A stretch of 64,000 nt of DNA from an uncultured Elusimicrobiales bacterium (GCA_964520045.1 CAZFMJ010000006.1:1390-65389); one strand, 5' to 3'; numbered from the stretch's first letter, positions 12,062 through 62,841 are shown. Numbers and translations: made by a program. The notes: generated by a model from the letters alone, not told the origin.

Positions 12062-12091
12062 GTTAACCCCGATACTCCGCAGCGCTTCCTT

Positions 12092-12244: not shown

Positions 12245-12274
12245 TGGAGTGTAATTGAATGGGAGGCGTATTTT

Positions 12275-12935: not shown

Positions 12936-12958
12936 CCTGCTTCCCTGGCCGCTCTCCT

Positions 12959-17657: not shown

Positions 17658-17668
17658 AGGAGAATAAA

Positions 17669-18544
17669 ATGACCGTTATAAAAAATCGTTACGACTTTGT
17701 TTATCTGTTTGATTGCCTTGACGGCAATCCCAACGGAGATCCTGATGCCGCAAATGCTCCACGTCTTGACCCCCAAACCTTACAGGGGATAGTTTCCGAT
17801 GTTTGCATTAAGCGCAAAGTGCGTAATTATGTGCAAATGCGCGGCCAGCCCATTTTTATACAGCACCACGGCATATTAAACAGCGAGATAGATAAAGCTG
17901 AACCAAGAAATGCGGAGCGAAATCGTGAAGAACGTAATCAGGCGGCGAAGTGGATGTGCGGAAATTTTTATGATGTCCGGGCATTCGGGGCGGTGATGAG
18001 CACTGGTTCAAATGCGGGACAGGTCAGAGGACCTATTCAGTTTACCTTTTCCCGCTCCATTGATCCGGTTGTGGCGTTGGACTTATCAATAACACGGGTC
18101 GCAATAACAAAAGTGGAGGATAAGGATAAAAAGGAAACGGAAATGGGCCGCAAAAACCTTATCCCTTACGGTCTTTACCGTTGCCATGGTTTTATAAATG
18201 CGAACTTGGCTCAGGAGCCTAATGGTACAGGATTTTCGGAAGAAGACCTTTCTCTTTTTTGGGAATCCTTGAAAATGATGTTTGATCATGATAGATCTGC
18301 TTCAAGAGGGACAATGTCGCCTCAAATGCTTACGGTGTTTAAACATATAGGAACTGATACTGATGAAAAACAGCGGTCTACCCAGGCAAAACTTGGGTGT
18401 GCCCCTGCACATAAACTGTTTGAGCTTATTAAAATTGAAAAAAACAAGGAAATCCCTCGCAAATACTTGGATTATAATGTCACCATGCCGGAAGCTGGAG
18501 TATTGACGGATTTTCCTGGTGTTGAAGTTATGCGCTTGATATAA
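17669..18544 (+). CDS. cas7: Cas7/Csd2 backbone subunit (type I-C)
   Basis: NRYDFVYLFDCLDGNPNGDPDAANAPR is the Csd2 signature. Confidence 0.95.
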   Translation: MTVIKNRYDFVYLFDCLDGNPNGDPDAANAPRLDPQTLQGIVSDVCIKRKVRNYVQMRGQPIFIQHHGILNSEIDKAEPRNAERNREERNQAAKWMCGNFYDVRAFGAVMSTGSNAGQVRGPIQFTFSRSIDPVVALDLSITRVAITKVEDKDKKETEMGRKNLIPYGLYRCHGFINANLAQEPNGTGFSEEDLSLFWESLKMMFDHDRSASRGTMSPQMLTVFKHIGTDTDEKQRSTQAKLGCAPAHKLFELIKIEKNKEIPRKYLDYNVTMPEAGVLTDFPGVEVMRLI

Positions 18545-18556
18545 ACGGGGTATCGA

Positions 18557-19177
18557 TTGGAACAAATTCTTCTTTCTGCTGTTAACCAGTATCTTTTTTG
18601 CCCAAGGAGATGCGGGTTGATTCACGTGGACGGCGTGTTTGCGGATAACGCCTACACGCTGGAGGGGAGTTTTTTGCATGGCAGGGCGGATACGCCAGGA
18701 GTGGAGAACAGGCCCGGCGTGAGAATTGTCCGGGCTCTGCCTCTTTATTCCAGAAAACTGGGGTTGAGCGGCAAGGCTGACATTGTGGAGTTTCATAAAC
18801 AGCAGGGCCATGCAGAAACGCCTCTGCCGGTTGATTACAAACGCGGGCCGCGCAGGAAATGGGAGAACGACGATGCCCAGCTCTGCGCGCAAGCCCTGTG
18901 CCTTGAGGAAATGCTGAATGCGGAGGTGCCGAAGGGGGCAATATTCCACGCCGCATCAAAACGGCGGAGAGAGGTGATATTTGACGTGGCGTTGCGTGAA
19001 ACCACGCTGAAAGCGATAGGCGATGTGCGTTCCATGCTTAAAACCGGCAAAGTTCCGCCGCCGATTCCAAGTCCACGTTGTGAAGGATGTTCGCTTAAAA
19101 AAATCTGCATACCCGAAATAGTTTCCGCGCCGGAAAAAGTTGCAAATTATAATAACAGTGTTTTTGACGGAGGATAG
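18557..19177 (+). CDS. cas4: Cas4 (RecB-like PD-(D/E)xK nuclease with Fe-S Cys cluster)
   Basis: N-terminal YLFCPRRC plus C-terminal CEGCSLKKIC cysteines; GKADIVEF nuclease core. TTG start. Confidence 0.9.
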   Translation: MEQILLSAVNQYLFCPRRCGLIHVDGVFADNAYTLEGSFLHGRADTPGVENRPGVRIVRALPLYSRKLGLSGKADIVEFHKQQGHAETPLPVDYKRGPRRKWENDDAQLCAQALCLEEMLNAEVPKGAIFHAASKRRREVIFDVALRETTLKAIGDVRSMLKTGKVPPPIPSPRCEGCSLKKICIPEIVSAPEKVANYNNSVFDGG

Positions 19178-19178
19178 C

Positions 19179-19922
19179 ATGAATTTCCAAAACCTGGTTA
19201 ATGTTATAACCGAAACGCAGAAAAATCTGCAGGGGCGGGCTTTGCGCAGTGTCGACCATTTTTTGACCGTCCGCAACTGGCTGATAGGTTGTTACATTGT
19301 GGAATATGAGCAAAAGGGAAACGACCGCGCGCAATATGGAGAGCATCTGCTTGAAAAACTGTCTGCCGCGCTTTGCGGGGAAAAAATGCGGGGGATGTCT
19401 TTCAGAAGTCTTAAGCTTTTTAGACAGTTTTACTGCGTGTATCCTCATATTGGGCAATCAGTGATTGCCCAATTCAAGGCAGCGGATATCAGCCTTCCGG
19501 CGCCAATTGGGCAATCGCTGTCTGCCCAATTGAGTGCCAATCTCCTGTCGGGCGGAAGAAATCTTGTCCGGTTAAGACAACCGTCGGGGGACTGTGGCAC
19601 AAAACCCGAATTATTGCTGTGCCGCCTAAGATTTACTCATTTTGCCAGATTGCTGGCTATAGACGAACCGGTTCAACGTTCATTTTATGAAGTGGAAACT
19701 ATCAAAGGCAATTGGAGTGTGCGTCAATTGAAGCGTCAGATAGAAAGCCTTCTTTATGAGCGGACCGGCCTTTCAAAAAACAAGACGTCCCTTCTTGCCA
19801 AAGTTCATAATCAAAAAGACGTTCCCATGCCGGAGGATATCATTAAAGACCCTTATGTTCTGGAATTTACCGGCTTGCAGGAACGTTCTGAATATAGCGA
19901 AAATGATTTAGAAACTGCTTGA
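19179..19922 (+). CDS. YhcG/DUF1016 N-terminal-domain protein lacking the C-terminal PDDEXK nuclease domain
   Basis: NWLIGCYIVEYEQKG..RAQYGEHLLEKLS, FTHFARLL, SFYEVETIKGNWSVRQLKRQI, KDPYVLEFTGL...SENDLETA then a stop, at the point where full-length YhcG proteins begin the nuclease core. RBS ggagga. Confidence 0.7.
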   Translation: MNFQNLVNVITETQKNLQGRALRSVDHFLTVRNWLIGCYIVEYEQKGNDRAQYGEHLLEKLSAALCGEKMRGMSFRSLKLFRQFYCVYPHIGQSVIAQFKAADISLPAPIGQSLSAQLSANLLSGGRNLVRLRQPSGDCGTKPELLLCRLRFTHFARLLAIDEPVQRSFYEVETIKGNWSVRQLKRQIESLLYERTGLSKNKTSLLAKVHNQKDVPMPEDIIKDPYVLEFTGLQERSEYSENDLETA

Positions 19923-19944
19923 TGCCTAACGATATAAAATAAAT

Positions 19945-20979
19945 ATGGACGCCGTAAGACAAAATACCCTATATGTAATGACGCAGGGCGCATACCTGCA
20001 CCGCGACCACTTGACGGTCAAGGTCGAAATTGAAAAAGAGACCCGGCTAAGCGTGCCCATTCACCATCTGGAATCTGTTTCTATTTTCGGGAATGTTATG
20101 GTGTCTCCCGGCGTTATGCGGTTATGCGCTGAAAACGGCGCGGCAATTACTTTTATGAGCGAGACAGGCAGGCTTATTGCCAGAGTTGACGCTCCGCAGT
20201 CAGGCAACGTTTTGTTAAGGCGCGAGCAATTCCGCAAAGCTGATAAGCCGGAAGAGGCGTTAAAAATTTCCATCCGTATAATAGCCGGAAAACTGCAAAA
20301 TACCCGTTGTGTGCTTATGCGGACGGCGCGGCAGGTGGAAGACAGCGTGGATATATCGGTTTTAGATAAATCTGCCGGAGATATCGGCCATATAATCAAA
20401 AGACTTGAATCCGCGAAATCTATTGATGAAGCGCGTGGATACGAAGGCGAAGGCGCGCAGATTTATTTCGGAGTTTTCAATAATCTTATGAAACAGCAGA
20501 GGGATGATTTCAGAATAACAAACAGAAACCGCCGGCCTCCGCTGGATCCCGCCAACGCCCTTCTTTCTTTTTCCTATGCCTTGCTTCTGCATGACTGCGT
20601 TTCAGCGCTTACAGCGGCCGGGTTGGATCCGAATGTGGGATTTCTGCATGCGGACAGGCCGGGGCGTCCGTCGCTGGCGCTGGATTTAATGGAGGAGTTC
20701 CGGCCTATTATCGCCGACAGGCATGTGCTGTCTATGATAAACAGGAAGGAAGTCGATAAAGATTGTTTTGCTAAACGCGAAGGCGGAGCTGTGGAAATGA
20801 GCGATGCCGCCCGAAAAAAGGTGGTTTCCGCATATCAACAGCGCAAACAGGAGGAAGTCACGCATCCATTGCTTGAACAGAAAATGACGGTAGGAATACT
20901 GCCTTTCTGCCAGGCGCGGTTATTGGCCCGCTATATCAGGGGAGACATAGCTGAATATCCGCCGTGCGTGCTGAAATGA
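19945..20979 (+). CDS. cas1: Cas1 integrase (type I-C)
   Basis: About 344 aa with GYEGEGAQIYF, NALLSFSYALL and FLHADRPGRPSLALDLMEEFRP blocks. Confidence 0.95.
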   Translation: MDAVRQNTLYVMTQGAYLHRDHLTVKVEIEKETRLSVPIHHLESVSIFGNVMVSPGVMRLCAENGAAITFMSETGRLIARVDAPQSGNVLLRREQFRKADKPEEALKISIRIIAGKLQNTRCVLMRTARQVEDSVDISVLDKSAGDIGHIIKRLESAKSIDEARGYEGEGAQIYFGVFNNLMKQQRDDFRITNRNRRPPLDPANALLSFSYALLLHDCVSALTAAGLDPNVGFLHADRPGRPSLALDLMEEFRPIIADRHVLSMINRKEVDKDCFAKREGGAVEMSDAARKKVVSAYQQRKQEEVTHPLLEQKMTVGILPFCQARLLARYIRGDIAEYPPCVLK

Positions 20980-21266
20980 TTATTGTTGTAGGATACGATG
21001 TGAATACTGAAACGGCAAAAGGCAGACGCAGACTGCGGCGCGTGGCTCTTGCCTGTAAAGATTACGGCCAGCGGGTGCAGAAGTCTGTTTTTGAGTGCAG
21101 GGTGGGCGGCAATGAATGGGTAAAATTCAAAACCCGGCTTCTTGCTGAAATAGAGGAAAAAGAAGACAGCCTGCGCTTTTATTTTATAGATGAAGCCGCG
21201 CAAAGGCGCACTGAGCATTACGGTCTTGGCAGGCCGGTGGATTTGGACGGCCCATTGATTGCGTGA
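20976..21266 (+). CDS. cas2: Cas2
   Basis: MIIVVGYDVNTETAKGRRRLRRVALACKDYGQRVQKSVFEC...SLRFY. ATGA overlap with cas1. Confidence 0.9.
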   Translation: MIIVVGYDVNTETAKGRRRLRRVALACKDYGQRVQKSVFECRVGGNEWVKFKTRLLAEIEEKEDSLRFYFIDEAAQRRTEHYGLGRPVDLDGPLIA

Positions 21267-21454
21267 TAAAGCCTCCGCCAACCGGAAGCGGGCGCGGTTT
21301 GTGCTGGATTTGGCGGAACTTAAAAAAGACATGAAAAACAAAGATATTTATGGAATGTGTATGGGCGAATGGCTAAGGGTATTTGATTATTTCTATTGCG
21401 TTGGCGATTTTGGGTCAAATTTGTTTTATAGTAGCAAGATATTTTGAGTATGCT

Positions 21455-22204
21455 GTTTCTCCTCTCCGAAAGGGGAGGAGTGGATTGAAACTTATGATGG
21501 TTTAGACTATCTTAAGCCTCGGTTGAGTTTCTCCTCTCCGAAAGGGGAGGAGTGGATTGAAACGTTGAACCATACAAAAGTAAACGACTGAACAAAGGTT
21601 TCTCCTCTCCGAAAGGGGAGGAGTGGATTGAAACAATTAATTCCTGTTCCATAAAGAAATCATACAAAGTTTCTCCTCTCCGAAAGGGGAGGAGTGGATT
21701 GAAACCTCAATCTTCCTGTTCAGTGTGCTACTGGCGTATGTTTCTCCTCTCCGAAAGGGGAGGAGTGGATTGAAACTAAACAATCAATATTTGTATAAAC
21801 TTTACGACCGTTTCTCCTCTCCGAAAGGGGAGGAGTGGATTGAAACATATCGACAGAATACTTGTGTCGCAGGCGGCCGGAACGTTTCTCCTCTCCGAAA
21901 GGGGAGGAGTGGATTGAAACATATACGGAGCCGAAGATAATGCGACGTTTATGAGTTTCTCCTCTCCGAAAGGGGAGGAGTGGATTGAAACATATTGTTT
22001 CATCCTGAAGTGCTTTCGTTGATTTTGTTTCTCCTCTCCGAAAGGGGAGGAGTGGATTGAAACCGCAGACTTTCCTATAAGCTGGGAGTTGTTGAGGTTT
22101 CTCCTCTCCGAAAGGGGAGGAGTGGATTGAAACTGTGAAATTGCGTAGTCGGTATCTGGTATTAATTGTTTCTCCTCTCCGAGAGGGGGGGAGTGGATTG
22201 AAAC
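21455..22204 (+). CRISPR. CRISPR array, 11 repeats of 37 nt and 10 spacers of 33-37 nt; leader on the cas2 side
   Basis: Repeat GTTTCTCCTCTCCGAAAGGGGAGGAGTGGATTGAAAC starts at 21455, 21527, 21598, 21669, 21740, 21810, 21884, 21955, 22027, 22097 and 22168. The last repeat is degenerate (gagaggggggg). The GTGGATTGAAAC 3' end is I-C-like. Confidence 0.97.
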
Positions 22205-22219
22205 AGAAAAAAACAAATT

Positions 22220-22822
22220 ATGAATGAATTAAATTATTGGAAAAATAAATGGTCCGATAATCCGATTGAGCCATCGAATAGTTTTGCTATGCGGGCATAT
22301 ATTTTAATAAAAGCCAAGTTGTTAAAATCTCTGCTTGATTTAGGGTGTGGCGATGGCAGAGATTCAATTTATTTTTCTAACAAAGGCTTATCAGTTACGG
22401 CTGTCGATTTTTCCGAAAGCGGAATCGCTAAATTAAAAGCACAAAGGCAAAAAATAAAATGTATTGCCGAAGATATTAGAAATATAAATTTTCCAGAAAA
22501 TTCTTTCGATGTTATTTATGCTCATTTGAGCTTACATTACTTTGATGACAAAACTACAAGCAAAATTTTTGATAATTTATTCCGGATTTTAAAGAAAGGC
22601 GGATTAATCTTTGTAAAATGCAAGTCAGTCGATGATGCATTGTTTGGGAAGGGAGAAAAAGTTGGCGGGAATATGTACAAGAAAGGCCATATCAGGCACT
22701 TTTTTACAAAAGATTACATGACAGAAAAGTTGAAAAGTTTTATGATTATAAAAGTACGAAAAACGTCGTCGGTTTATCATGATTATAAGTCAGCTTTTGT
22801 TGTGGCAGTAGCGACAAAATAA
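22220..22822 (+). CDS. class I SAM-dependent methyltransferase
   Basis: Motif I LLDLGCGDGRDSIYF and post-I VTAVDFS, then ILKKGGLIF. Visibly AT-rich compared with its neighbours. Confidence 0.8.
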   Translation: MNELNYWKNKWSDNPIEPSNSFAMRAYILIKAKLLKSLLDLGCGDGRDSIYFSNKGLSVTAVDFSESGIAKLKAQRQKIKCIAEDIRNINFPENSFDVIYAHLSLHYFDDKTTSKIFDNLFRILKKGGLIFVKCKSVDDALFGKGEKVGGNMYKKGHIRHFFTKDYMTEKLKSFMIIKVRKTSSVYHDYKSAFVVAVATK

Positions 22823-22898: not shown

Positions 22899-22962
22899 CC
22901 ATCTGGCAGTCCAACTGTTCAGCCGCCTAGCGGTCCAGCTGCCTAGCCGTCAAGCCGGTGAC
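22899..22962. repeat. stutter repeat (GTCCAGC/CTAGCCG words), homologous to the in-frame insert in purL
   Basis: gcggtccagctgcctagccgtcaagcc resembles the reverse complement of 38351-38429 (gcggtccagctgtctagctgcctcgccgtccagcc). Confidence 0.6.
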
Positions 22963-22965: not shown

Positions 22966-25140
22966 TCAATGTCTGAAGTGGCGCACGCCTGTAAAGACCA
23001 TTGCGATATTATGTTCGTCCGCCGCCGCTATAACTTCCTTGTCTTTTATTGATCCGCCCGGCTCTATAACGGCCGTTGCGCCTATTTTCGCCGCTTCGTC
23101 GATCCCGTCCCTGAACGGAAAGAAAGCGTCCGAGGCGAGAGCTAAAACTCCGGCGGGTTTATTGTCTTTCATATACGCCTGATATTTTCTGCCGGCCATG
23201 TGGACGGAGTCGACCCGCGACATCTGGCCGGCGCCTATTCCCACCGTGTTATGCCTGTCCGCAAGAACTATCGCGTTTGATTTCACATGCTTGCAGACCG
23301 TCCACGCGAATTTAAGGGCTTGTTCCTCTTCTTTGGAGGGTTTGCGTTTTGTGACCGCATTCCACTCTTTGCCTAAAACTATCGAGTCGCGCTCCGTGAC
23401 AAGGGTTTCGTCGCCGGTCGAGCGCAGTATCCATTTGTTTCCGATCGGGGTTTTCCTTTCAAGCAGGCGGATGTTCTGCTTTTGGGATAAAATCTTTACC
23501 GCTTCGGGGTCGTATTCCGGAGCGGAGATAACTTCAACGAACCTTTTGGCGAGTATTTCCGCTATTTCCTTTGTGAATTTCCGGTTTACGGCTATAACTC
23601 CCCCGAAGGCCGACAAACCGTCGCAGTTCCACGCCCTGTTGAAAGCGTCAAGAAGGTTTTCGCCTTCCGCTATTCCGCACGGCGTAACGTGCTTAAAAAT
23701 AACCACGGCCGGTTTTTCAAGTTCGCAGACCGCCTCCCATGTTCCGTTCGCGTCAAGGATGTTGTTGAAAGAAAGTTCCTTGCCGTGAAGCTGGCTGAAG
23801 GAGGGGGAGCCTGAATCGGAATAAAGAGCCGCTTTCTGGTGGGGGTTTTCGCCGTATCTTAAATCCTGTATTTTTATCAGAGCGGGCTGGAACGTTTTGG
23901 GAAAAACTCCGTTATTTGAACTTTTACTAAACGCGTTGTGAATCATTGTGTCGTATTCCGCCGTATGGCCGAATGCTTCCACCGCCAGTTTTTTTCTGGT
24001 TTCTCCGCTTAGGCATCCTCCGGAAGACTCCATTTCCTTAATCACATTTTTGTATTCCGCGGGATTTGATATGACGGCCACGTCTTCAAAATTTTTTGCC
24101 GCGGCGCGCAGAAGGGCAACTCCGCCGATGTCTATTTCCTCTATGACTTTCTGCTCGAACGGCGATGCGGCGTTGGCCGCGGTTTTGGCGAACGGATATA
24201 AATTAACGGCAACAAGATCTATGGGCTCAAGTCCGAACCGCTCCGCTTCGGTCCGTTGGCGGCTGTCCTGCCTTCTGAAAAGTATGGCGCCGTGCACCAT
24301 AGGATGAAGCGTTTTGACCCGGCCCGAAAGTATTTCCGGAAATCCCGTCATGGATTCCAGCGGTCTTACGTTTATTCCGGCTTCTTTGAGCATTTTTGCC
24401 GTGCCGGAAGTGGAGACTATTTCCACGCCGAGAGCTGAAAGGCTTTTTGCAAATTCCGCCAAGCCGGTTTTGTCGGACACCGAAATAAGGGCGCGCTTTA
24501 CGGCGTTTTGCCGTTTCCCGCCGTGAGCCGTGATTTTTACCCTGCGGTTTTCCAGCTTCAGCCTGTCTTCGCAGAAAAGGCTTACGGCTCTTGGGTATAA
24601 AAGATGCTCCTGGGCATGCACTCTTTTTGCAAGGGTTTCCGGAGTGTCGCCTTCCAGCACAGGAACGCCGGCCTGAAGTATTATCGGGCCTGTATCGTAA
24701 TCCTTGTCTATAAAATGAACGGTGGCTCCGCTAAGGCGCGCCCCGGAAGCCAGCGCCGCCTCATGAACTTTCATGCCGTACATGCCTTTTCCTCCGAATG
24801 ACGGAAGGAGCGCCGGATGAATGTTCATTATATGAGGAAAACGGCTGAGCATTTGGTTTCCGAGTTTCAGCATGAATCCGGCGAGGCATATTAAATCAAT
24901 ATGTTTTTCAGAGCATAACTGCGTAAGTCTTTTGTCTAAATCTTCAGGGGAGGAATAATCCGCCGGAGTCAGGCAGACTGCCGGTATCCCCGCTTTTTCA
25001 GCCCGTTTAAGGGCTCCCGCGTCTCTGCGGCTGGAGACGACAAGCGCTATATTGCCGTTTATCCGTCCGCTTTGCGCGGAGTCTATCAAAGATTGAAGAT
25101 TAGTGCCTTCTCCGGAAGCAAATACCGCAATATTTTTCAT
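22966..25140 (-). CDS. purH: fused PurN-PurH: GAR formyltransferase (aa 1-~205) joined to AICAR formyltransferase/IMP cyclohydrolase
   Basis: N-terminus: IAVFASGEGTNLQSLID, NIHPALLP, HFIDKDYDTGPIILQ (PurN). From about aa 215: RALISVSDKTGLAEFAKSL...VKTLHP...FTGVRHFRH (PurH). One uninterrupted 724-aa ORF. Confidence 0.9.
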   Translation of the reverse strand: MKNIAVFASGEGTNLQSLIDSAQSGRINGNIALVVSSRRDAGALKRAEKAGIPAVCLTPADYSSPEDLDKRLTQLCSEKHIDLICLAGFMLKLGNQMLSRFPHIMNIHPALLPSFGGKGMYGMKVHEAALASGARLSGATVHFIDKDYDTGPIILQAGVPVLEGDTPETLAKRVHAQEHLLYPRAVSLFCEDRLKLENRRVKITAHGGKRQNAVKRALISVSDKTGLAEFAKSLSALGVEIVSTSGTAKMLKEAGINVRPLESMTGFPEILSGRVKTLHPMVHGAILFRRQDSRQRTEAERFGLEPIDLVAVNLYPFAKTAANAASPFEQKVIEEIDIGGVALLRAAAKNFEDVAVISNPAEYKNVIKEMESSGGCLSGETRKKLAVEAFGHTAEYDTMIHNAFSKSSNNGVFPKTFQPALIKIQDLRYGENPHQKAALYSDSGSPSFSQLHGKELSFNNILDANGTWEAVCELEKPAVVIFKHVTPCGIAEGENLLDAFNRAWNCDGLSAFGGVIAVNRKFTKEIAEILAKRFVEVISAPEYDPEAVKILSQKQNIRLLERKTPIGNKWILRSTGDETLVTERDSIVLGKEWNAVTKRKPSKEEEQALKFAWTVCKHVKSNAIVLADRHNTVGIGAGQMSRVDSVHMAGRKYQAYMKDNKPAGVLALASDAFFPFRDGIDEAAKIGATAVIEPGGSIKDKEVIAAADEHNIAMVFTGVRHFRH

Positions 25141-31505: not shown

Positions 31506-31712
31506 TTTATTCTCCTAATTTATAGACCTACAACCTATCGCCATAAATCATATCACGAAACCCGTTTTCCCGCATGGGCATTCGGGGTAGATTTTTCCGG
31601 GCATTCGGCCTAGGGGAAATCCGGGCTTTAGGCCCATATTTTTTATAGGACTTAAGGCACTGTCCGGATGCCGAACCACCTGTTAAACTATTAGTGCAAG
31701 GGGCGGGGTGAT

Positions 31713-32771
31713 ATGAACTCAAAACTAATTACGTTATCATTGGTCATAACAGCCTTTCTTACTTTCCCGGCTAATTCCGGTGCCGATGACCGATTAACAA
31801 ATATTGCTTCGCAATTGGGAGCCGATCCTTCCATAACCGGCAGTATCCCGGAACCGGCTGCCGTTCCTGCCGATATACAGCGCGGTGAAACCGGCGGAAA
31901 ACGCATGTCGGCCGAGACTATCAGCGCTGAATTCGGCGTTACCTTAAAAGACGGCGCGAGCGATTGGCAAACCTCGGAGCTTGAAGCTGTTTACGGGCTT
32001 TTCAAAAGTCTGCGCCTGTCCAAGGATTTTTTGCGGAAACTGGAGCTGAAATATATAGTCAGGCAGACTTTCAAGCCGGGCGTAATAATGGCCGCGTTGT
32101 ATGTGAATGATAAGCCCGGGGATAAATATCTGGAAGTCTTCGACTTCCTCTATAAAGGCAATTTTGCCGATTTCCCGCCGGCAAGCCGGCCCGGCAGGCG
32201 GCTGCAGGAGGCGCTGGCGCACGAGATAGGGCACGCATGGCAGGAACACTTCACCGATTATAATGCCGACGGCGATTACCGCTTTGCCGGGCAGTCCGTC
32301 ATAAACCGCAGATTATCGGAAGATGCGGAATTTAAAAAAGTGTACGGCCTTATTTATGCCAGGAATAAAATCCGGCTTGAAGACGTTCCCGAAAACCAGA
32401 AAATTGATTTGATAAATTCCGTTCTGCAGGACGCGTCTCCGCGGGAAAAAACCGCTCTGCTTAAGGGACTGCTTTCGGAACGCAATCTTGAATCCTGCGG
32501 GAAAATAAATGATTTTGCGCGGATATCCGGCTGGAAGGGAGTCAATAAGCTGACCGGAGAAACGGCTGATTTTAACAAAGATAGTCTTGACGGATTGTTT
32601 TTTCAGAACGCAAAACCCTCCGCGCAGATGCTTTCGTCTGAAGCGGAACGCGCTCCCACCGAGGATTTTGCCGAAAGTGTAAGATATTATGTCTTTTATC
32701 CTGAACAGCTCCGCATGCACAGCCTTGAAAAATACAATTACATCAAACAGCGCGTATTTAACGGGCGCTAA
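31713..32771 (+). CDS. secreted putative zinc metallopeptidase (HEXXH)
   Basis: Signal peptide plus EALAHEIGHAWQEH. Family not recognised. Confidence 0.55.
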   Translation: MNSKLITLSLVITAFLTFPANSGADDRLTNIASQLGADPSITGSIPEPAAVPADIQRGETGGKRMSAETISAEFGVTLKDGASDWQTSELEAVYGLFKSLRLSKDFLRKLELKYIVRQTFKPGVIMAALYVNDKPGDKYLEVFDFLYKGNFADFPPASRPGRRLQEALAHEIGHAWQEHFTDYNADGDYRFAGQSVINRRLSEDAEFKKVYGLIYARNKIRLEDVPENQKIDLINSVLQDASPREKTALLKGLLSERNLESCGKINDFARISGWKGVNKLTGETADFNKDSLDGLFFQNAKPSAQMLSSEAERAPTEDFAESVRYYVFYPEQLRMHSLEKYNYIKQRVFNGR

Positions 32772-32940
32772 GTCTTAGGAAGGCTTTGTTTAACTGCGCG
32801 CCTGAAGGCAGACCTTTCCGGACATTTGACCTGCTTGAAATTAAGAAAAAAACCCCATACTGTCGTAATAGGCCGAATAGTCCGGAAATATTACCCTTAA
32901 TGCCCATGCGGAAAAAGTAAAACTGCTCTATAATATTGTT

Positions 32941-36315: not shown

Positions 36316-37059
36316 TTATTTGCAGTATTTCACGGTATTTCTGAAAAATTCCAAACCTATTGCGGAGGAATCCGAATCCTTCCTTGTCCAGGAAGGATGA
36401 TGGTATTTTGAGGCGTTTCTTTCAGGATGGGGCATGAGTCCGAAGCAGTTCCCCGTCTCATTGCATATTCCGGCTATGTCGCATACGGAGCCGTTGGGAT
36501 TGTCCGTATATTGAAGTGCTATTCCTCCCGCCCGCGTTATTTTTTGAAGAGTCCGCTTTGAATCCGTTATGAATTTTCCTTCTCCGTGCGCGATGGGCAG
36601 TTCTATGAATTCAGGCAGGCCTTTTGTAAACAGGCAGGGACTGTTTTTGTTTACCTTAAGTTTCACCCATTTTGCCAGAAAATGTCCGCAGTCGTTAAAG
36701 GCAAGGCTTGCGCTCTGTTTGAAATCATCGGCATAAGGAAGCATTCCTGTTTTTACCAAAACCTGAAAGCCGTTGCATATCCCTATCACGGGCCTGCCGC
36801 TTTTTATGAATTCCGGCAAATCTTTAAGATGGCGCGTCACCTGATTGGCGAGAATTTTCCCCGCGGCGATGTCGTCTCCGTAGGAGAATCCTCCCGGAAA
36901 CGCGAGTATGGAATAATCAAGAAGTTTTACATCTCCTGAAATCAGGGATTTTATATGAATACGCTCGGGCGCTCCGCCCGCAGTTTTGAATGCGTTTTCC
37001 GTTTCAATGTCGCAGTTCGTGCCCGCCGTTCGGATTATTAAAACCTTAGGTTTTTTCAT
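36316..37059 (-). CDS. purQ: FGAM synthase glutaminase subunit
   Basis: GICNGFQVL nucleophile elbow and MPHPER; about 247 aa. Confidence 0.9.
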   Translation of the reverse strand: MKKPKVLIIRTAGTNCDIETENAFKTAGGAPERIHIKSLISGDVKLLDYSILAFPGGFSYGDDIAAGKILANQVTRHLKDLPEFIKSGRPVIGICNGFQVLVKTGMLPYADDFKQSASLAFNDCGHFLAKWVKLKVNKNSPCLFTKGLPEFIELPIAHGEGKFITDSKRTLQKITRAGGIALQYTDNPNGSVCDIAGICNETGNCFGLMPHPERNASKYHHPSWTRKDSDSSAIGLEFFRNTVKYCK

Positions 37060-37112
37060 AACTATGGTGCTATCATCTCATGGTATAGAACTATGGGTAA
37101 AATGAGTTAAAG

Positions 37113-37210
37113 TTTCCTCCCCCCTTGCGGGGGAGGAATAAGGTGGGGGGAGGTTTTCCATTCCACACTGTCCCCCCATCCCAACCTTCCCCCGCAAGGG
37201 GGGAAGGAAT
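37113..37210. repeat. inverted pair of GC-rich GNRA-loop hairpin repeats (REP-like)
   Basis: ttcctccccccttgcgggggaggaa and ccttcccccgcaaggggggaagg (GCAA loop), each with a flanking CCCCCCAYC box, in opposite orientations. Confidence 0.7.
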
Positions 37211-37239
37211 CTATATGTATTTTTTCACGACAAACTCTG

Positions 37240-39828
37240 TTATTTGAAAAATGTACATAGCGGACGCTTCCAGCGATCTTTCAAATTTTCAAGGGATTCT
37301 TCAATAACTGTCTTATTGTTAAGCCCCGTTATTTTCAATGTCTTTTCTTCTGTTGTCCGGCCTAGTTCGGCGCAGACCGCTCCGGCCATGCATTTTAGAA
37401 ATTTTAATTTGTTTTCAGGATGAATTTCCATAAGTATTCTGCTTTGCGATTCCGAAAACAGCAGTATTGAATCAGAAACGGATTTTCCCGCAAAAGGCAT
37501 ATTTTTAAGTTTTATATCTGCCCCGCAGTCCCCGGAGAAAGCCATTTCAGCGATGCACGCCCCAAGCCCGCCCTGCGAAAGGTCATGGGCTGAAAGTATC
37601 AGTTCTTTATTTATGGCAGAAAGCAGGGATTTGTAGGTTTTGAATGCTTTCTTAGGATTTGTTTTCGGAACATTAAAATCGCTTACGCCTGTTATTTCGG
37701 AGTAGATAGAGCCTCCGGTCTCGGCGAAGGTTTCGCCTATTATATAAAGCAGGTTTCCCGCGCTCTTTATATCCATTGTAAGCGCTTTTCTTATGTCGTT
37801 TACCGGAGCGGAGGCCGAAATTAAAATCGTGGAAGGTATATCAAGATTTTTGCCGTCTGCGTCTTTTGACCGGTTGTAAAAGCTGTCTTTTCCCGAAATA
37901 AAAGGGGCCTCGTATGCTTTTGAGGCTTCATAGCATCCTTTGGCGCAGCGCACAAGCTCTCCCAGCAATTCAGGATCTTCCGGACTGCCCCAGCAGAAAT
38001 TATCCAGAAAAGCGCATTTGGTTATGTCGGCTCCCGCGCACAGAAGATTTCGGACGGCTTCGTCCGCGCATGAAAGCGCCATCCAGTACGGGTCTAATTT
38101 TCCGAATGCGGGATTGATGCCGTGGCTTACCGCAAATCCGGAGAAATCGGACATGTCGCCGGTGGCTGAGCGCGGCCATATTACGCAGGCATCGCCGGGT
38201 CCGTCGGCATATTTACCCTGAAGCGGTTTTATAACAGTTCCGCCCTGCACTTCATGGTCGTACTGCTGTATCACCGGTTCCCTGCTGCAGACATTAAGGT
38301 GGGAAAGCGCCGCTTTAAGTATTTCTCCGTAATTTTCCTGTCCAATGTGCCGCTGGACGGCTGGATGGCTGGACGGCGAGGCAGCTAGACAGCTGGACCG
38401 CCAGACTGCTGGACCGCTGGACTGGTGACATGGGTTTACTGATGACTGGGTGCCTTTTTCTGGGGGGATAACTGTAATTTTTCGGTTAATCCGCAATTTT
38501 TCGGTTTTGATCTTCTCCTGCGGTTTCCATACAGCGGAACGTTTTATTTTAGGCAGTCCGCTGTGCAGGAAGTCCATTCCTATATCAATGATTGTTTCTT
38601 CATGGAATGTCACAACAAGCCTGCCTGTGCCGGTAAATGTTCCCAAGACCGCATGCTCGCAGTTTTCCGCGTCAAAGATTTCTTCCAGTTTCCTCAGGTT
38701 TTCCGGAGGAACCGCGAATATCATTCTTTCCTGCGATTCGGATACCCATATTTCCCACGGCAGTATGTTTGAATCTTTTAGTTTTGCTTTTTCCAGATGA
38801 ACTTTTGCCCCGCATTCTGAGCCTAGTTCTCCTATGGCCGAGGAAAATCCGCCGGCCCCGCAGTCCGTAACCGCCCTGTAAAGTTTTTTGTCGCGCGCTT
38901 TTAAGAGGCAGTCCAGCGCCTTTTTTTCATTTATGGCATGGCCTATCTGAACTGCTGATGCGGATGCGTTTTCAAGCGAAGCCGAGGAAAAGGTGGCTCC
39001 GTGCAGGCCGTCCCTGCCCGTTCTGCCTCCCGCGGCAAATATTATGTCGCCGGGATTTACCTTTTTTGATACTGCCCAAACCGGCATTATTCCCACTGTT
39101 CCGACGAACACAAGAGGGTTGAGCATGTAGCCTTCGTCAAAATGTATCGCTCCCGCGGCGGTGGGAATGCCCATGCGGTTTCCGTAATCGCGCACTCCCG
39201 CCACTACGCCTTTGAATATGCGCTCCGGAGACAAGGCTGATTTCGGGAGATTTTTTTTGTAGCCGGGGGGGGCGAAGCAGAAAATATCGGTATTAAGCAC
39301 CGGTTTTGCTCCGAGACCTACTCCAAGCACGTCGCGCACCACCCCGCCCACTCCGGTTTCCGCTCCGCCGTAGGGCTCTATGGCGCAGGGGTGGTTATGC
39401 GTTTCGGCTTTAAAAGCCAATGCCCATTTGCCGGATTTCCCGAATTTAACGACCCCGGCGTTGTCTTTGAATACCGAAAGGCACCATGGCTTTGAAAGTT
39501 CAATGGTCGCTTTTTGTATGTATTTTTTAAAAAGCCCCTCGGGAATAAATTGTGTTTTTCCGTTTTCTTTATATAAAATCGGGCCTGTGAATGTTTTGTG
39601 TTTGCAGTGTTCCGACCATGTCTGGGCTATTGTTTCAATTTCACCCAGAGACGGCTGTCTGCCCGTTTTTTTGAAATGGGTCTGGATATATTGAAGCTCC
39701 TGTATGTTCAGCGACCATCCAGCGGAATTATTAAGGAATTCCAGTTGTTTATTGTTAAGGCCGTTGAATGATCCAAGCAGGTTCTCGGGATTTAACATTT
39801 TCCGCGTTCTTGTTTTTAACATAGTCAC
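37240..39828 (-). CDS. purL: FGAM synthase II (PurL) with ~35-40-aa in-frame low-complexity insert
   Basis: SEHCKHKTF, ETHNHP, AIEPYGGAETGVGG and QYDHEVQGGT blocks. 862 aa, longer than I expect for small-type PurL. The insert is encoded by 38351-38429. Confidence 0.9.
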   Translation of the reverse strand: MTMLKTRTRKMLNPENLLGSFNGLNNKQLEFLNNSAGWSLNIQELQYIQTHFKKTGRQPSLGEIETIAQTWSEHCKHKTFTGPILYKENGKTQFIPEGLFKKYIQKATIELSKPWCLSVFKDNAGVVKFGKSGKWALAFKAETHNHPCAIEPYGGAETGVGGVVRDVLGVGLGAKPVLNTDIFCFAPPGYKKNLPKSALSPERIFKGVVAGVRDYGNRMGIPTAAGAIHFDEGYMLNPLVFVGTVGIMPVWAVSKKVNPGDIIFAAGGRTGRDGLHGATFSSASLENASASAVQIGHAINEKKALDCLLKARDKKLYRAVTDCGAGGFSSAIGELGSECGAKVHLEKAKLKDSNILPWEIWVSESQERMIFAVPPENLRKLEEIFDAENCEHAVLGTFTGTGRLVVTFHEETIIDIGMDFLHSGLPKIKRSAVWKPQEKIKTEKLRINRKITVIPPEKGTQSSVNPCHQSSGPAVWRSSCLAASPSSHPAVQRHIGQENYGEILKAALSHLNVCSREPVIQQYDHEVQGGTVIKPLQGKYADGPGDACVIWPRSATGDMSDFSGFAVSHGINPAFGKLDPYWMALSCADEAVRNLLCAGADITKCAFLDNFCWGSPEDPELLGELVRCAKGCYEASKAYEAPFISGKDSFYNRSKDADGKNLDIPSTILISASAPVNDIRKALTMDIKSAGNLLYIIGETFAETGGSIYSEITGVSDFNVPKTNPKKAFKTYKSLLSAINKELILSAHDLSQGGLGACIAEMAFSGDCGADIKLKNMPFAGKSVSDSILLFSESQSRILMEIHPENKLKFLKCMAGAVCAELGRTTEEKTLKITGLNNKTVIEESLENLKDRWKRPLCTFFK
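38351..38429. repeat. stutter repeat (GCTGGAC words) lying in-frame inside purL
   Basis: cgctggacggctggatggctggacggcgaggcagctagacagctggaccgccagactgctggaccgctggactggtgac. Confidence 0.75.
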
Positions 39829-39936
39829 GATAGTTCCATTCTACACATATTTTTGGAGGTATCAAGCCCAAATTGCTATGCAATTTGGAATGCCTAAATC
39901 CATTTTGCTATGTAATTTGGGGTTAGGGTTTCCAGA

Positions 39937-40581
39937 TTACATAATCGAAAAAGTGTTCACGATCGGGTTTACGAAAGTTTTTTTAACGGCATTTTCAATT
40001 TGTCTGCCGGAAGCCGGCGTTTTTAGCAGATAAGCCGTTCCGCAGCGGACGGACTCAGGCTCTTTAAGGCCTAAATCGGCGATCGCTTTTTTAACGCTTT
40101 CCCCCGGCACATCGGTTACCGAGTCTTTAAGCCATACTTCCACCCTGCGCCAGCCCTTCAAGGGGAAGGTGGAGTGCGAGACGGCTGGACTGTCCAAACA
40201 ATCCTTAAAAGCAGTGAGTTTGGACTGATCCATTCTCAAAGCCATTGAGGAAGGAATGGGACAGCTGGACAGTTGGGCCGCCGGAAACTGGTGATTTTTT
40301 TCTCTCTGGTGACCTTTTCCGCTGGAAACTGGTGACTTTTTCTGGAGAGGCAATTGCGGGAGTTGTATTGCATCGCAGGTTTCAGTTACCCTGTCGCATA
40401 AAAGTTCGTTCATTATCAGGTTTATTTCATCCTGCCGGAAATCGCCGGTTATTTTGTAAAGGCGGGAAACAGATGCCGAATGGGCCGAATCAAAGCCGCT
40501 TGTTTTAAGCGTTGATATGACATGCGCTTCTTCCGATTTGGCAAATTCCGGTTTTGTGCTGATTTCTATAACAAAATTCAT
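39937..40581 (-). CDS. purS: PurS-like protein with two PurS-type domains joined by repeat-derived linker (or purS plus an upstream in-frame ORF)
   Basis: C-terminus VEVWLKDSVTDVPGESVKKAIADLGL...VRCGTAYLL...FVNPIVNTFSI is a canonical PurS. The N-terminal 70 aa are PurS-like (RLYKITG...LLCDRVTE). An alternative GTG start lies at 40143. Confidence 0.75.
   Translation of the reverse strand: MNFVIEISTKPEFAKSEEAHVISTLKTSGFDSAHSASVSRLYKITGDFRQDEINLIMNELLCDRVTETCDAIQLPQLPLQKKSPVSSGKGHQREKNHQFPAAQLSSCPIPSSMALRMDQSKLTAFKDCLDSPAVSHSTFPLKGWRRVEVWLKDSVTDVPGESVKKAIADLGLKEPESVRCGTAYLLKTPASGRQIENAVKKTFVNPIVNTFSIM
40192..40345. repeat. double-hairpin element (40192-40261) plus stutter repeat (40262-40345), in-frame inside the purS ORF
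   Basis: Homology to 8468-8540 (reverse complement), and ggaaactggtgac occurs twice. Confidence 0.7.
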
Positions 40582-41446: not shown

Positions 41447-41487
41447 TCCCCCCATCCCAGCCTTCCCCCGCAAGGGGGGAAGGAACC
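41447..41487. repeat. GC-rich GNRA hairpin repeat (REP-like)
   Basis: tccccccatcccagccttcccccgcaaggggggaaggaa is near-identical to 37171-37210. Confidence 0.7.
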
Positions 41488-41521
41488 TGCCAATACTTTT
41501 TTCTGCCATGAGCCAAATGTG

Positions 41522-43054
41522 TCACTCCCATTCGATCGTGGACGGCGGTTTTGAAGTGATGTCATATACCACGCGGTTTATTCCCCGCACCTCGCTTACT
41601 ATCCTGCCGGATATTTTCTGGAGTATTTCATGGGGAAGTTTTGACCAGTCCGCTGTCATTCCGTCGATGCTTTCCACCAGACGCACCGCCGCGGCGTTTT
41701 CATAGGTGCGCTCGTCTCCCATGACTCCCACGGATTTTACCGGAAGAAGCACGGCAAAGGCCTGCCATATTTTTTTATCCCATCCGCCCGCGGAGATCTC
41801 CTCGCGCACTATCAGATCGGCTTTGCGCAGTATCTCAAGCCTGCCGGCGGTTACGGCGCCGATTATCCTTATGGCAAGTCCGGGGCCGGGGAAAGGATGC
41901 GCCGACAGTATTTCCTCGTTCATGCCCATCTCCCGTCCCAACTTGCGCACCTCGTCCTTAAAAAGGAATTTCAGTGGTTCGATAAGCTTGAGCTTCATTC
42001 GCTTGGGCAGTCCGCCCACATTGTGGTGGCTTTTGATCACGGCGGAGGGTCCTGATACGGACACCGATTCTATCACATCGGGGTAAAGCGTGCCTTGCGC
42101 AAGGAAGTCGATCCCCTTTATGCGTTTTGCTTCTTTGTTGAAAACTTCAATAAAAGTTCTGCCTATGATTTTTCGTTTGCGCTCCGGGTCCGCCACTCCC
42201 TCAAGCCTTTTGAGGAAAAGTTTTGAGGCATCCGTCATTTTAAGATTAAGGCGCATCTTTCCGGCAAAAAGCCGTTTTACCCTTTCGCTGTCGCCGGAGC
42301 GCAGGAGGCCGGTGTCCACAAAAATGCAGTAGAGCCGTTTTCCTATGGCGCGGTGTATTATCGCGGCTGCCACCGAGGAGTCCACTCCTCCGGAAAGCGC
42401 GCAGACAACGGAGCCGTTTCCCGTCTGCCTCCTGATATTTTCAATAGATTCCTTTAATACGCACGCGGGAGTCCAGCGTTCGGAATAGCCGCATATCCGC
42501 CGGGCGAAGTTTTCAAGTATTTTATTCCCGCAGGAGGTATGCGCGACTTCCGGATGGAACTGGACCCCGTAAAAATTTCTGCGCTCATCGGCTATCGCGG
42601 CAAACAGGGCGGATCCGGTAACAGCGGCGGTTTTAAAATCGCCGCCGGTTTTTTTTACTCCGTCGCCGTGGCTCATCCATGCCTGAAAATGCTCGGGAAT
42701 ATTATGAAAAAGAGGGGAGCGCGCCGTCACTTTTACTTTTGCAAAGCCGTATTCGCGTTTTTTTGCTTTGTCCACTCTGCCCCCGCTTACGGCGGCAAGA
42801 AGCTGCATGCCGTAGCATATGCCGAGCGCCGGTATCCCCATTTTAAGGATTCGCAGGTCCGGTCTGGGTGATTTCGCCGCATGCACGCTTGCCGGTCCGC
42901 CTGAAAGTATGATCCCCAGAGGATTGTGTTTTTGTATTTCTTCAAAAGGCGCGGAAAAGGGAAGGATTTCTGCGTAGACGCCCTTTTCCCTGAGCCGTCT
43001 GGCTATGAGCTGGGTGTACTGGCTTCCGAAGTCCAATACAAGTATCCGCCTCAT
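41522..43054 (-). CDS. guaA: GMP synthase (glutamine-hydrolysing)
   Basis: ILVLDFGSQYTQLIARRLRE, SGGVDSSV PP-loop, C-terminal PPSTIEWE. Confidence 0.95.
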   Translation of the reverse strand: MRRILVLDFGSQYTQLIARRLREKGVYAEILPFSAPFEEIQKHNPLGIILSGGPASVHAAKSPRPDLRILKMGIPALGICYGMQLLAAVSGGRVDKAKKREYGFAKVKVTARSPLFHNIPEHFQAWMSHGDGVKKTGGDFKTAAVTGSALFAAIADERRNFYGVQFHPEVAHTSCGNKILENFARRICGYSERWTPACVLKESIENIRRQTGNGSVVCALSGGVDSSVAAAIIHRAIGKRLYCIFVDTGLLRSGDSERVKRLFAGKMRLNLKMTDASKLFLKRLEGVADPERKRKIIGRTFIEVFNKEAKRIKGIDFLAQGTLYPDVIESVSVSGPSAVIKSHHNVGGLPKRMKLKLIEPLKFLFKDEVRKLGREMGMNEEILSAHPFPGPGLAIRIIGAVTAGRLEILRKADLIVREEISAGGWDKKIWQAFAVLLPVKSVGVMGDERTYENAAAVRLVESIDGMTADWSKLPHEILQKISGRIVSEVRGINRVVYDITSKPPSTIEWE

Positions 43055-44211
43055 TTTCCCATGCCTATTTTCTGAGCTTTCTGGAAAAGTTTTCCTTCGG
43101 TCTTTATGGAAGGAGCTATGATTATTTCGGCCAGCTGGAGTTCTTTTATCGTGGCGGCGCCCAGCGTTCCCATGCAGGTCTTGAGCGCTCCAACAAGGTT
43201 CTGGCTTCCGTCGTCAAGCTTTGACGGGCCGCAGAGAATTTCCTCAAGCGAGCCGGTGACGCCCACGTATATTCTGGTTCCGCGCGGAAGATTGTGATGC
43301 GGGGTGGCCATGCCCCAGTGGTATCCGAATCCGGGCGCTTCCTTGCTTTTTGCAAACGCCGAGCCCACCATCACTCCGTCTGAACCGCAGGCTATCGCCT
43401 TGCAGATGTCTCCGCCGGTGGACATTCCGCCGTCCGTTATTATCGGGACATAGCGGTTCGTCTTTTTGAAGTAAAAATCTCTCGCCGAAGAGCAGTCTAT
43501 GGTGGCTGTTACCTGCGGCACGCCGATTCCGAGAACGCCCCGCGTGGTGCAGGCGGCGCCCGGGCCGACTCCCACAAGCAGTCCGGCTATGCCTGTTTCC
43601 ATGAGCTCGAGGGCCGTTTTGAAGGTGACGCAGTTGCCGGCGATTACCGGCATTTTCATTTCTTTGCAGAATTTTGCGATGTCTAAAGATTCGTGTTTTG
43701 AGGATTTATGTTTTACGGTTATGACGGTAGACTGCACTACGAATATGTCGCATCCCGCCTCTTTGGCTATGCGTCCGTAATCTTCTGCGTTCTGGGGTAT
43801 TGTGGATACGGCGCAGGGCACCTTGGCTTTTTTTATTTCCTCCACCCGCTTTCCTATCAGATGCTTTTTGACCGGTTCCTTATACATGTCCTGAACAAGT
43901 TTGGTGGCCGTTTCGGGGTCGGCCTTGGAAATATTTTTCGTTATTTCGCGCGGGTTTTCATACCTTGTGTTTATGCCGTCGAGATTTAAGACCGCAAGCC
44001 CGCCGAGCCTGCCCATTTCTACGGCAAAAGGAACGTCCACGACCCCGTCCATGGCGGAGGCAAGAAAAGGTATCTGAAGCTTTATATCTCCTATGGCCAG
44101 CGTTGTGTTCGTATCTTCGGGGTCGATCGTGCAGTTTCCCGGAATAAGCGCTATCTCGTCAAATCCGTAAGCCCTTCTGGCTTCGCGGTCCCTGCCTATG
44201 AAAAATGCCAT
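43051..44211 (-). CDS. IMP dehydrogenase-family protein without CBS insert (GuaB3-like)
   Basis: FDEIALIP, FLASAMDGV and GAACTTR (IMPDH Cys loop), but only 386 aa. Confidence 0.75.
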   Translation of the reverse strand: MAFFIGRDREARRAYGFDEIALIPGNCTIDPEDTNTTLAIGDIKLQIPFLASAMDGVVDVPFAVEMGRLGGLAVLNLDGINTRYENPREITKNISKADPETATKLVQDMYKEPVKKHLIGKRVEEIKKAKVPCAVSTIPQNAEDYGRIAKEAGCDIFVVQSTVITVKHKSSKHESLDIAKFCKEMKMPVIAGNCVTFKTALELMETGIAGLLVGVGPGAACTTRGVLGIGVPQVTATIDCSSARDFYFKKTNRYVPIITDGGMSTGGDICKAIACGSDGVMVGSAFAKSKEAPGFGYHWGMATPHHNLPRGTRIYVGVTGSLEEILCGPSKLDDGSQNLVGALKTCMGTLGAATIKELQLAEIIIAPSIKTEGKLFQKAQKIGMGK

Positions 44212-58294: not shown

Positions 58295-58320
58295 TTTGTT
58301 TCCTAGGGCTAATAAAAGAA

Positions 58321-58548
58321 ATGGGCAGTATAAGATTTGCCAGCGAACGCGGGTCCCAGCGGCCGTGTGCTGGGAAACCTATGACCTATAAAAGAAATGG
58401 GCAGTATAGGATTTGCCAGCGAATGCGGGTCCCCGCTGCCGTGTGCTGGGAAACCTATGACCTATAAAAGAAATGGGCAGTATAGGATTTGCCAGCGAAT
58501 GCGGGTCCCCGCTGCCGTGTGCTGGGAAACCTATGACCTATAAAAGAA
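58321..58548 (-). repeat. three tandem 76-bp units derived from the tRNA-Val 3' part (T-arm plus acceptor 3' strand), each with a 36-nt insert in the T-loop
   Basis: Period 76 (atgggcag at 58321, 58397, 58473, and 58549 in the tRNA itself). Units 2 and 3 look identical; unit 1 has 4 substitutions. Confidence 0.9.
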
Positions 58549-58549
58549 A

Positions 58550-58621
58550 TGGGCAGTATAGGATTTGAACCTATGACCCTTCGCGTGTGAGGCGAATGCT
58601 CTTCCGCTGAGCTAACTGCCC
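58550..58621 (-). tRNA. tRNA-Val (anticodon CAC)
   Basis: Reverse complement reads GGGCAGT TAGCTCAGCGGAAGAGC ATTCGC-CTCACAC-GCGAA GGGTC ATAGGTTCAAATCCTAT ACTGCCC A, a full cloverleaf. Confidence 0.85.
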
Positions 58622-62649: not shown

Positions 62650-62841
62650 ACTGCCTTCAGCGGATTAAAAGATTTTAGCAGGCCAAGGAAAACAACTAAA
62701 AATAAGCTGCCACGTGGTTTCTTTGCCGACCGTTGCATAACGCTGAAACCAATTCGATGAATGGAACCCGGTAAGCCGTGTGCGGGAAAACCGCCTGCAC
62801 GGTTTGACGAGGGGAGGAGGCTTAGCCTTCTTCTACTCTAC
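62650..62841 (+). mobile_element. orphan 3' end of a group II intron (domain V 62773-62805, domain VI with bulged A at 62835, 3' end ..CTAC at 62841)
   Basis: AAGCCGTGTGCGGGAAAACCGCCTGCACGGTTT folds like consensus DV: AGC triad, 9-bp lower helix, 2-nt bulge, 4-bp upper helix. The following hairpin has a bulged A 6 nt before an AC terminus. No RT ORF or 5' domains are present. Confidence 0.65.

Follow-up and report, generated by a model that had tools for sequence, protein, structure and literature searches.

The window, by which we mean the whole 64,000-nt stretch of DNA that was analysed, carries a purine operon in which purC, purS, a small purL and purQ follow one another in this order, and the identical order was found at the related loci L001, L005 and L009. 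The genes of this region are as follows:

43051-44211, minus strand: guaB
41522-43054, minus strand: guaA
40578-41531, minus strand: purC (SAICAR synthetase), starting at either ATG 41531 or TTG 41441
39937-40581, minus strand: purS, an ORF of 214 aa with a tandem PurS–PurS arrangement, a putative single-chain pseudo-dimer
37240-39828, minus strand: small purL (FGAM synthase II), probable start ATG 39798
36316-37059, minus strand: purQ (GATase_5)

Purine genes other than purS in the window are guaB, guaA, purC, purL, purQ, purF, purD, purM and purNH, and purE, called from gene order alone, is probably also present. Another fused purine enzyme of the same genome is a PurN (Formyl_trans_N)–PurH (MGS and AICARFT_IMPCHas) protein, encoded by one 724-aa ORF at 22966-25140 on the minus strand. 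A six-frame search of the window with the family profile detected no PurS-like ORF besides that at 39937-40581. An earlier note on this DNA had reported the 214-aa ORF, which is indeed present; the coordinates it gave, 40143-40581, cover the N-terminal domain and the linker but leave out the C-terminal domain.

The purS start codon, ATG 40581, overlaps the purC stop codon as ATGA (…CTTTCATGAATTTT…), with a GGAAAGAG motif upstream of the ATG, and the same 4-nt purC/purS overlap is found in the relatives L005 and L009. At its other end purS is a separate ORF, with its stop at 39937 and the purL start at 39828 or 39798, that is, 108–138 nt upstream of purL. This purS–purL gap (39829-39936) corresponds to a 4-nt overlap in the relatives. 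It contains a 61-nt palindrome (arms, 39864-39889 and 39899-39924) in which a perfect 9-3-9 site (CCAAATTGCTATGCAATTTGG) is embedded, and a promoter-like TTGATA-16-TAGAAT sequence on the minus strand immediately upstream of purL. This arrangement may reflect yet another insertion, or an operator combined with a promoter inside the operon.

The purS product is divided into three parts:

40363-40581, minus strand: N-terminal PurS-like domain, aa 1–73, beta-alpha-beta-alpha-beta
40165-40362, minus strand: in-frame, stop-free interdomain insert of 66 aa (198 nt), aa 74–139, predicted to be disordered
39940-40164, minus strand: C-terminal canonical PurS domain, aa 140–214, with the conserved LKGW-RVEVW at its start

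Compared with the Pfam PurS family (PF02700, cutoff 22.2 bits), the whole 214-aa protein scored 48 bits and the C-terminal domain (residues 146–213) 37.6 bits, bearing out the canonical PurS domain previously placed at aa ~147–214. The N-terminal domain alone (residues 4–69) scored 13.9 bits (E 0.06), below the cutoff, with a match covering profile positions 3–73 of 77, and matched NCBIfam PRK06423 at E 0.0016. The run of the PurS HMM on both halves that the earlier note had proposed therefore gave a C-half above the cutoff and an N-half that spans the family but stays below it, while the N-half is clear at the profile level. When 133 family members were aligned by HMM and separate profiles were made for the two domains, hhalign related the N-domain to the C-domain profile with a probability of 99.4% (E 1.2e-21, 67 columns), and a 40-sequence N-domain profile matched the sequences of seven solved PurS proteins, namely, 1gtd (1.2e-6), 2yx5, 2cuw, 3d54_B, 1vq3, 1t4a and 8j3n. 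Judged by these sequence profiles, the N-terminal domain is unambiguously assigned to PurS at the family level, as had been proposed for aa 1–70.

An AlphaFold2 model based on a 110-sequence alignment consisted of two beta-alpha-beta-alpha-beta units, with pLDDT 93–98 for both domains and pTM 0.71; a first, shallower model had a pLDDT of 69. Foldseek, run with the first model, gave large PurL proteins as the best PDB matches (6lym, 1t3t and human 9nb3, ~214 columns), with TMq ~0.5 when the 64 disordered residues are counted in and a sequence identity of only 8–10%. Single PurS chains superposed on one half of the same model (1twj, TMt 0.80, rmsd 2.1). The most economical reading is that the purS product would be a functional, natural single-chain PurS pseudo-dimer serving small PurL and PurQ in the FGAM synthase, in which one polypeptide with two PurS domains would stand in for the PurS dimer that works with these two proteins. 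A natural pseudo-dimer beside small PurL and PurQ favours two PurS units per PurL.

The nearest homologues of the window protein are proteins of 148 aa (some of 166 aa), several of them from Elusimicrobiota MAGs, which align with both halves at 39–51% identity, leaving out fragment P0001, which is 100% identical. When 1.84 billion cluster representatives were searched with a profile, 1280 matched at E<=1e-3 and 377 of these at E<=1e-10; among the 150 best of the 1280 representatives, most are 145–170 aa long with a match spanning both domains. The window protein aligns over all 148 profile positions of this tandem PurS family, some members of which are named 'hypothetical protein' by NCBI, and the relatives' loci have the order purC–purS–purL–purQ with a small PurL. 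No solved structure with a tandem PurS–PurS architecture was found, and the literature searched for tandem or fused PurS contained no paper describing a free-standing tandem protein.

Because the two-domain relatives of ~148 aa have a short linker, the fusion must be older than the repeats found in the window gene, and the repeats are secondary. The proposal that the repeats created the two-domain protein is ruled out by the same comparison, as the insert-free relatives already have the fusion; the tandem architecture would be ancestral to the lineage. The single-chain PurS dimer proposed in the earlier note thus stands in that both domains are PurS, the model resembles large PurL and the repeats are tolerated, but not in that the repeats made it.

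Relative to the 148-aa proteins, the window PurS has 66 extra residues, 64 of which fall within the interdomain linker (profile positions 70–73), and the insert is placed between TETCDAIQ and PLKGW-RVEVW. By one consistent measure applied to 143 full-length members, the linker is 76 residues long against a family mode of 12–16; it is the longest of the 143, the next longest is 48, and most members are without any insert. The inserted residues (~75–140) were modelled at pLDDT 48–62, and below 50 in the first model, with one low-confidence helix predicted at residues 120–130. Only one of the six reading frames of the insert is stop-free, and this is the frame in use. From shuffled sequences, a stop-free stretch would arise by chance with a probability of 0.067 in the case of the purS insert; for an insert in purL (described below) the figure is 0.18, in both cases before a further factor of 1/3 for keeping the frame. 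The base composition of the insert is not distinctive.

Two elements make up most of the insert, and each has a relative elsewhere in the window:

40186-40268, no strand assigned: element B, a palindrome within the insert with a conserved core at 40194-40260, forming a long hairpin on either strand
40269-40350, no strand assigned: element A, a stutter segment with direct repeats at 40278-40300 and 40319-40341, containing GTCACCAG and GTCCAGC motifs
8463-8546, no strand assigned: the second copy of element B, intergenic and inverted, with stops in all six frames
22907-22960, no strand assigned: an intergenic sequence related to the GTCCAGC-type repeat, bounded by a 200-aa ORF (22220-22822) and purNH

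The core of element B at 8471-8538 aligns in inverted orientation with 40260-40194, with 60 of 68 columns identical (seven mismatches and one gap; blastn E 1.8e-16, nhmmer E 3e-12), and 0.00 chance matches are expected for a 30-mer of the element. This agrees with the earlier observation of a hairpin element shared, in opposite orientation, with the intergenic region at ~8468–8540. Both copies fold as a long imperfect hairpin (z −3.5 to −4.6), and the palindrome in the purS mRNA has a folding energy of −37.5 kcal/mol; the earlier description as a double hairpin holds in that two sub-palindromes exist, but the minimum-free-energy fold is one long imperfect hairpin. The outer stems differ in sequence between the two copies, and, in the frame used by purS, a TTG of the purS copy corresponds to TAG in the intergenic copy. 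GTCCAGC is present on both sides of element B in purS, yet the motif belongs to the surrounding repeat. No conserved terminal inverted repeats were found when the two window copies were compared, and no duplication was seen at the copy at 8.5 kb. The intergenic region of this second copy also contains, at 8222-8311, a tandem repeat, (CGGTAGA)n, and a self-complementary stretch of 86 nt; part of the sequence there matches window positions 5-50.

Within element A, GGAAACTGGTGA occurs exactly twice, at 40283 and 40324, as had been described, but the 13th base differs (T versus C) and the direct repeat as a whole is 23 nt long with 91% identity. The units of element A are terminator-like on the plus strand (40279-40334), where CGCCGGAAACTGGTG followed by a T-run appears twice; they are antisense to purS, and only that orientation would spare purS transcription from termination.

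In the window, the palindrome is present twice and the GTCCAGC-type repeat about three times. The claim that the linker is made entirely of mobile repeat sequence stands to the extent that related copies elsewhere in the window account for ~165 of the 198 inserted bases, the match of the stutter segment being weak (E 0.0044). As only two palindrome copies were seen in 64 kb, we infer rather than observe mobility, and the repeats would have spread by transposition or recombination. Rfam contained no family for the element, the sole match being a chance hairpin match to mir-181 (19 bits against a cutoff of 45.5), and a Pfam scan of ~30 of the 66 window ORFs of at least 150 aa detected no transposase. 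A scan of metagenome contigs with the 25-nt palindrome core and a scan of viral contigs for the palindrome both returned 0 matches. A 19-mer gave three matches among genome contigs, in unrelated Pirellulaceae and Lachnospiraceae, which is the number expected by chance. In the scan of metagenome contigs with the N-domain protein, 266 pattern matches were obtained and 0 were confirmed.

The exact 214-aa product is encoded on ENA groundwater metagenome contigs of PRJNA292723 (SRR2177951, SRR2177954 and SRR2177956) and on the Logan assembly SRR5855240, and a purS fragment is present on ENA ERZ5996431 and JGI 3300009031. All recovered contigs, six besides the window, are 99.9–100% identical to it, and an assembly artefact is rejected because the sequence was independently assembled at least six times at this level of identity. 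Among the available copies, all at least 99.9% identical, neither an insert-free allele nor a close relative with an empty site was found, and no convincing target-site duplication was found at the insert. The two fragment-bearing contigs, L003 and L004 (ENA ERZ5996431 and JGI 3300009031), both end exactly at 40413, ~50 nt upstream of the insert. We considered this shared end as a sign of an insert-free allele, but low coverage or re-assembly of the same reads is simpler; the end could reflect the same low-coverage reads assembled again, or a branch in the assembly graph. An intein was also considered for the insert and rejected, since 66 aa is too short and no intein-like motifs were seen by eye; to our knowledge, every known intein is far longer than 66 aa.

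Other repeats were detected in the same operon:

38341-38484, minus strand: in-frame insert of ~48 aa in PurL, in the linker between its two halves, built from (GTCCAGCN)n
37108-37215, no strand assigned: inverted pair of the CCTTCCCCCGCAAGGGGGGAAGG hairpin repeat, within the purL–purQ gap

The window PurL is 862 aa long (852 aa from ATG 39798) compared with 791–804 aa in relatives, the excess being a ~48-aa block (…RKITVIPPEKGTQSSVNPCHQSSGPAVWRSSCLAASPSSHPAVQRHIG…) in the linker that joins the two synthase-domain halves. This insert matches the intergenic sequence at 22907-22947, and element A of purS, in the 5' ~100 nt of its insert, matches the purL insert weakly on the same strand (nhmmer E 0.0044; shared blocks CCAGAAAAAG-CACC and …GGCGGYCCARCTGTCYAGCTG…). 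The DNA common to the 5' part of the purS insert and the purL insert is read in different frames, and the kinship of the two inserts is therefore at the DNA level and not at the protein level. At the purL–purQ junction, where the genes of relatives overlap, a 180-nt gap (37060-37239) is filled by the CCTTCCCCCGCAAGGGGGGAAGG-type inverted pair, and the CCTTCCCCCGCAAGGGGGGAAGG hairpin repeat is also present at the guaA–purC junction. The purC ATG 41531 overlaps the guaA stop, and a hairpin repeat at 41447-41488 is read in frame as part of the N-terminal coding sequence of this ORF (peptide VPSPLAGEGWDGG), placing 40 residues before the PurC GKVRD, compared with 9–22 in relatives. Either purC starts at TTG 41441, or this is the third in-frame repeat insert of the operon; the MGV/MGI likeness of this PurC to that of L005 is forced by the conserved EWE-stop codons of guaA.

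We propose that ~198 nt of small non-coding repeat DNA, the 83-nt palindrome together with the stutter segment, would have entered a short linker. The insert could survive because of its position in a surface linker, a length divisible by three and the absence of stops from the frame that is read; under these conditions it would therefore be translated as a disordered 66-aa loop that disturbs neither domain. The same filter of surface linker, frame and freedom from stops would account for the in-frame repeat insert between the halves of PurL. Taken as a whole, the reading in which one chain carries two PurS domains of ancestral origin, with repeat DNA later inserted in the linker and translated as a disordered loop, has in our estimate a probability of about 0.85.

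Inserts at the same position are not confined to the window lineage. At L009 (GCA_964566245.1), where the gene order is that of the window, PurS is 187 aa long and only 28% identical to the window PurS, and its linker contains a 114-nt palindromic insert (z −4.4) consisting of two inverted copies of a ~40-nt hairpin repeat. This repeat, which resembles the CCTTCCCCCGCAAGGGGGGAAGG hairpin repeat of the window, is also present between genes and in purL, at the same linker as the window purL insert, where it encodes SGHPLPQVGEGGGEGH. Palindromic linker DNA was also found in L014 (84 nt, z −5.1) and L015 (87 nt, z −8.2), while that of L016, the fourth long-linker member examined, is not strongly palindromic. 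The linker inserts of the different lineages are unrelated in sequence and length. The presence of different palindromes in the same PurS and PurL linkers, between PurS proteins that are 28% identical, indicates that these linkers are insertion-tolerant sites.

The recurrence of palindromic inserts at the same linker in unrelated lineages also bears on whether the insert has a function of its own, as a flexible tether, as an interaction peptide or as an mRNA structure regulating translation or stability of the operon. The strongly stable hairpin and the low-confidence helix at residues 120–130 would fit such a role. Since the inserts share neither sequence nor length between lineages, the DNA common to purS and purL is read in different frames and the majority of the family does without any insert, we regard a dedicated function as very unlikely; passive tolerance of the insert is the better fit.

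We also weighed a reading in which two products are made, with the C-terminal domain translated by itself from GTG 40143, or set free by cleavage of the mRNA at the palindrome, and with the upstream half as a distinct or decaying gene that shares the frame by chance; the earlier note had offered the start at GTG 40143 with a decaying upstream gene as its second possibility. A GTG is present at the start of the C-domain strand, the N-domain alone falls below the Pfam cutoff, and the stable palindrome in the mRNA could in principle be a processing site. Against this, the homology to the N-domains of the 148-aa relatives extends over the whole N-domain of the window protein, which holds all the invariant positions of a 12-sequence alignment, in which the window protein is one of the 12. 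The conserved LKGW lies upstream of GTG 40143 and therefore counts against an independent start of the C-domain, before which no convincing Shine–Dalgarno sequence was read by eye. There is no stop between the halves, so ribosomes that start at 40581 would read through, and the coupled ATGA start is common to the relatives L005 and L009. The invariant positions of the N-domain, the upstream LKGW, the absence of a stop and the overlap of the ATG with purC speak together against the start at 40143, and we consider two separate products highly improbable. From its sequence context, the 214-aa chain would be translated in full. That purS is instead a pseudogene or inactive relic, broken by the repeats and awaiting decay, would accord with an insert far above any other linker of the family and with repeats scattered through several genes and junctions of the operon, but it is the least credible of the alternatives and can practically be set aside, because the frame is intact with the used frame alone free of stops, both domains are modelled at pLDDT 93–98, the identical sequence is present across several samples, and the window, for all its other purine genes (from guaB and guaA to purNH and the probable purE listed above), has no second purS.

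Other features were observed elsewhere in the window. A complete type I-C CRISPR-Cas locus (12959-22205) consists of cas3, cas5d, csd1/cas8c, cas7, cas4, a DUF1016 ORF and cas1, followed by a CRISPR array at 21454-22205 with a 37-nt repeat (GTTTCTCCTCTCCGAAAGGGGAGGAGTGGATTGAAAC) and a period of 71. Direct repeats of 107 nt (88%) at 12083-12189 and 12950-13056 flank a 200-aa ORF without a Pfam match; this repeat-flanked unit (12083-13056) lies immediately upstream of cas3 and overlaps the cas3 start. A 76-nt tandem repeat (3.4 copies, 97%) in the region 58312-58621 abuts tRNA-Val(CAC) at 58550-58621 (minus strand) with an 18-nt overlap, and may be the scar of an integration site. Inverted repeats of 48 nt (86%) at 31565-31612 and 32869-32916 flank a 352-aa ORF (31713-32771) without a Pfam match; this unit has the shape of a mobile element, but, when it was considered as a possible autonomous element, no transposase domain and no likeness to the purS repeats were found. 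A group II intron catalytic domain was detected at 62771-62841 on the plus strand (Rfam, 48 bits against a gathering score of 40).

Each half of the window protein has the family and fold of the PurS subunit of the PurS–smPurL–PurQ FGAM synthase (PF02700; B. subtilis 1T4A/1TWJ, T. maritima 1VQ3/3D54), and the window purS likewise lies beside a small purL and purQ; the role of the tandem PurS is presumably the same as that of the PurS dimer. Whereas canonical PurS is a single domain of 80–94 aa that dimerises, the window protein unites two diverged domains, separated by the 66-aa insert, in a single polypeptide. For the whole window model, the best PDB matches came from the large PurL N-domain (S. 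enterica 1T3T; human FGAMS 9N9W/9NB3); this domain is fused to the synthase domain, in contrast to the tandem PurS, which is a separate ORF. A survey of archaea described only free PurS and the PurL-fused 'mdPurL', in which PurL carries an N-terminal PurS-like extension of ~200 aa (PMC3261824). mdPurL is likewise an intermediate architecture, with a module the size of a double PurS replacing free PurS; the mdPurL module is archaeal and fused to PurL, whereas that of the window is bacterial and free-standing. It is plausible that the free-standing tandem PurS is a step towards the N-domain of large PurL.

As to the repeats, the Rickettsia palindromic elements (RPEs; Ogata et al. 2000, 2002) are, as summarised in PMC10969869, small palindromes found in frame in unrelated housekeeping genes and translated as an extra peptide; in the same summary, the fold of the host protein is predicted to be compatible with the insert, intergenic copies exist as well, and the element carries a conserved ORF. 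The window insert is RPE-like in being palindromic, in frame and located between conserved domains with the ORF kept, in a host fold predicted to accommodate it, and in having an intergenic copy too. It differs in that stops interrupt every frame of the intergenic copy, in that only two or three copies per repeat family were seen in the window, and in its lineage, an uncultured groundwater bacterium with its nearest proteins in Elusimicrobiota. Likened by description, the RPEs would be the closest known phenomenon. MITEs and REP-like elements (ERIC, BOX, SPRITE) are shorter than 200 nt, hairpin-forming and dispersed, mostly between genes with occasional in-frame fusions (PMC10969869). The window elements resemble these in size and hairpin formation and in being dispersed, with in-frame fusions besides intergenic copies, and the units of element A, with the look of a Rho-independent terminator on the antisense strand, recall SPRITE; unlike MITEs, however, they showed neither a target-site duplication nor conserved terminal inverted repeats, and no partner transposase was detected among the ~30 window ORFs scanned.

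For annotation, these results mean that purS should be entered as a single tandem PurS of 214 aa, neither split nor cut back to the C-terminal domain. More tentatively, and we hold it to be less likely than not, families of protein-coding palindromes may repeatedly colonise permissive linkers of essential enzymes in this lineage and its relatives (the linker between the PurS domains, that between the PurL halves and perhaps the N-terminus of PurC), and the free-standing tandem PurS may be the missing link in evolution from the PurS dimer to the large PurL N-domain. Two points merit follow-up: the tandem PurS family, which is undescribed, and the convergence of inserts on the same pair of linkers in different lineages, which would extend the RPE type of phenomenon to uncultured groundwater bacteria.
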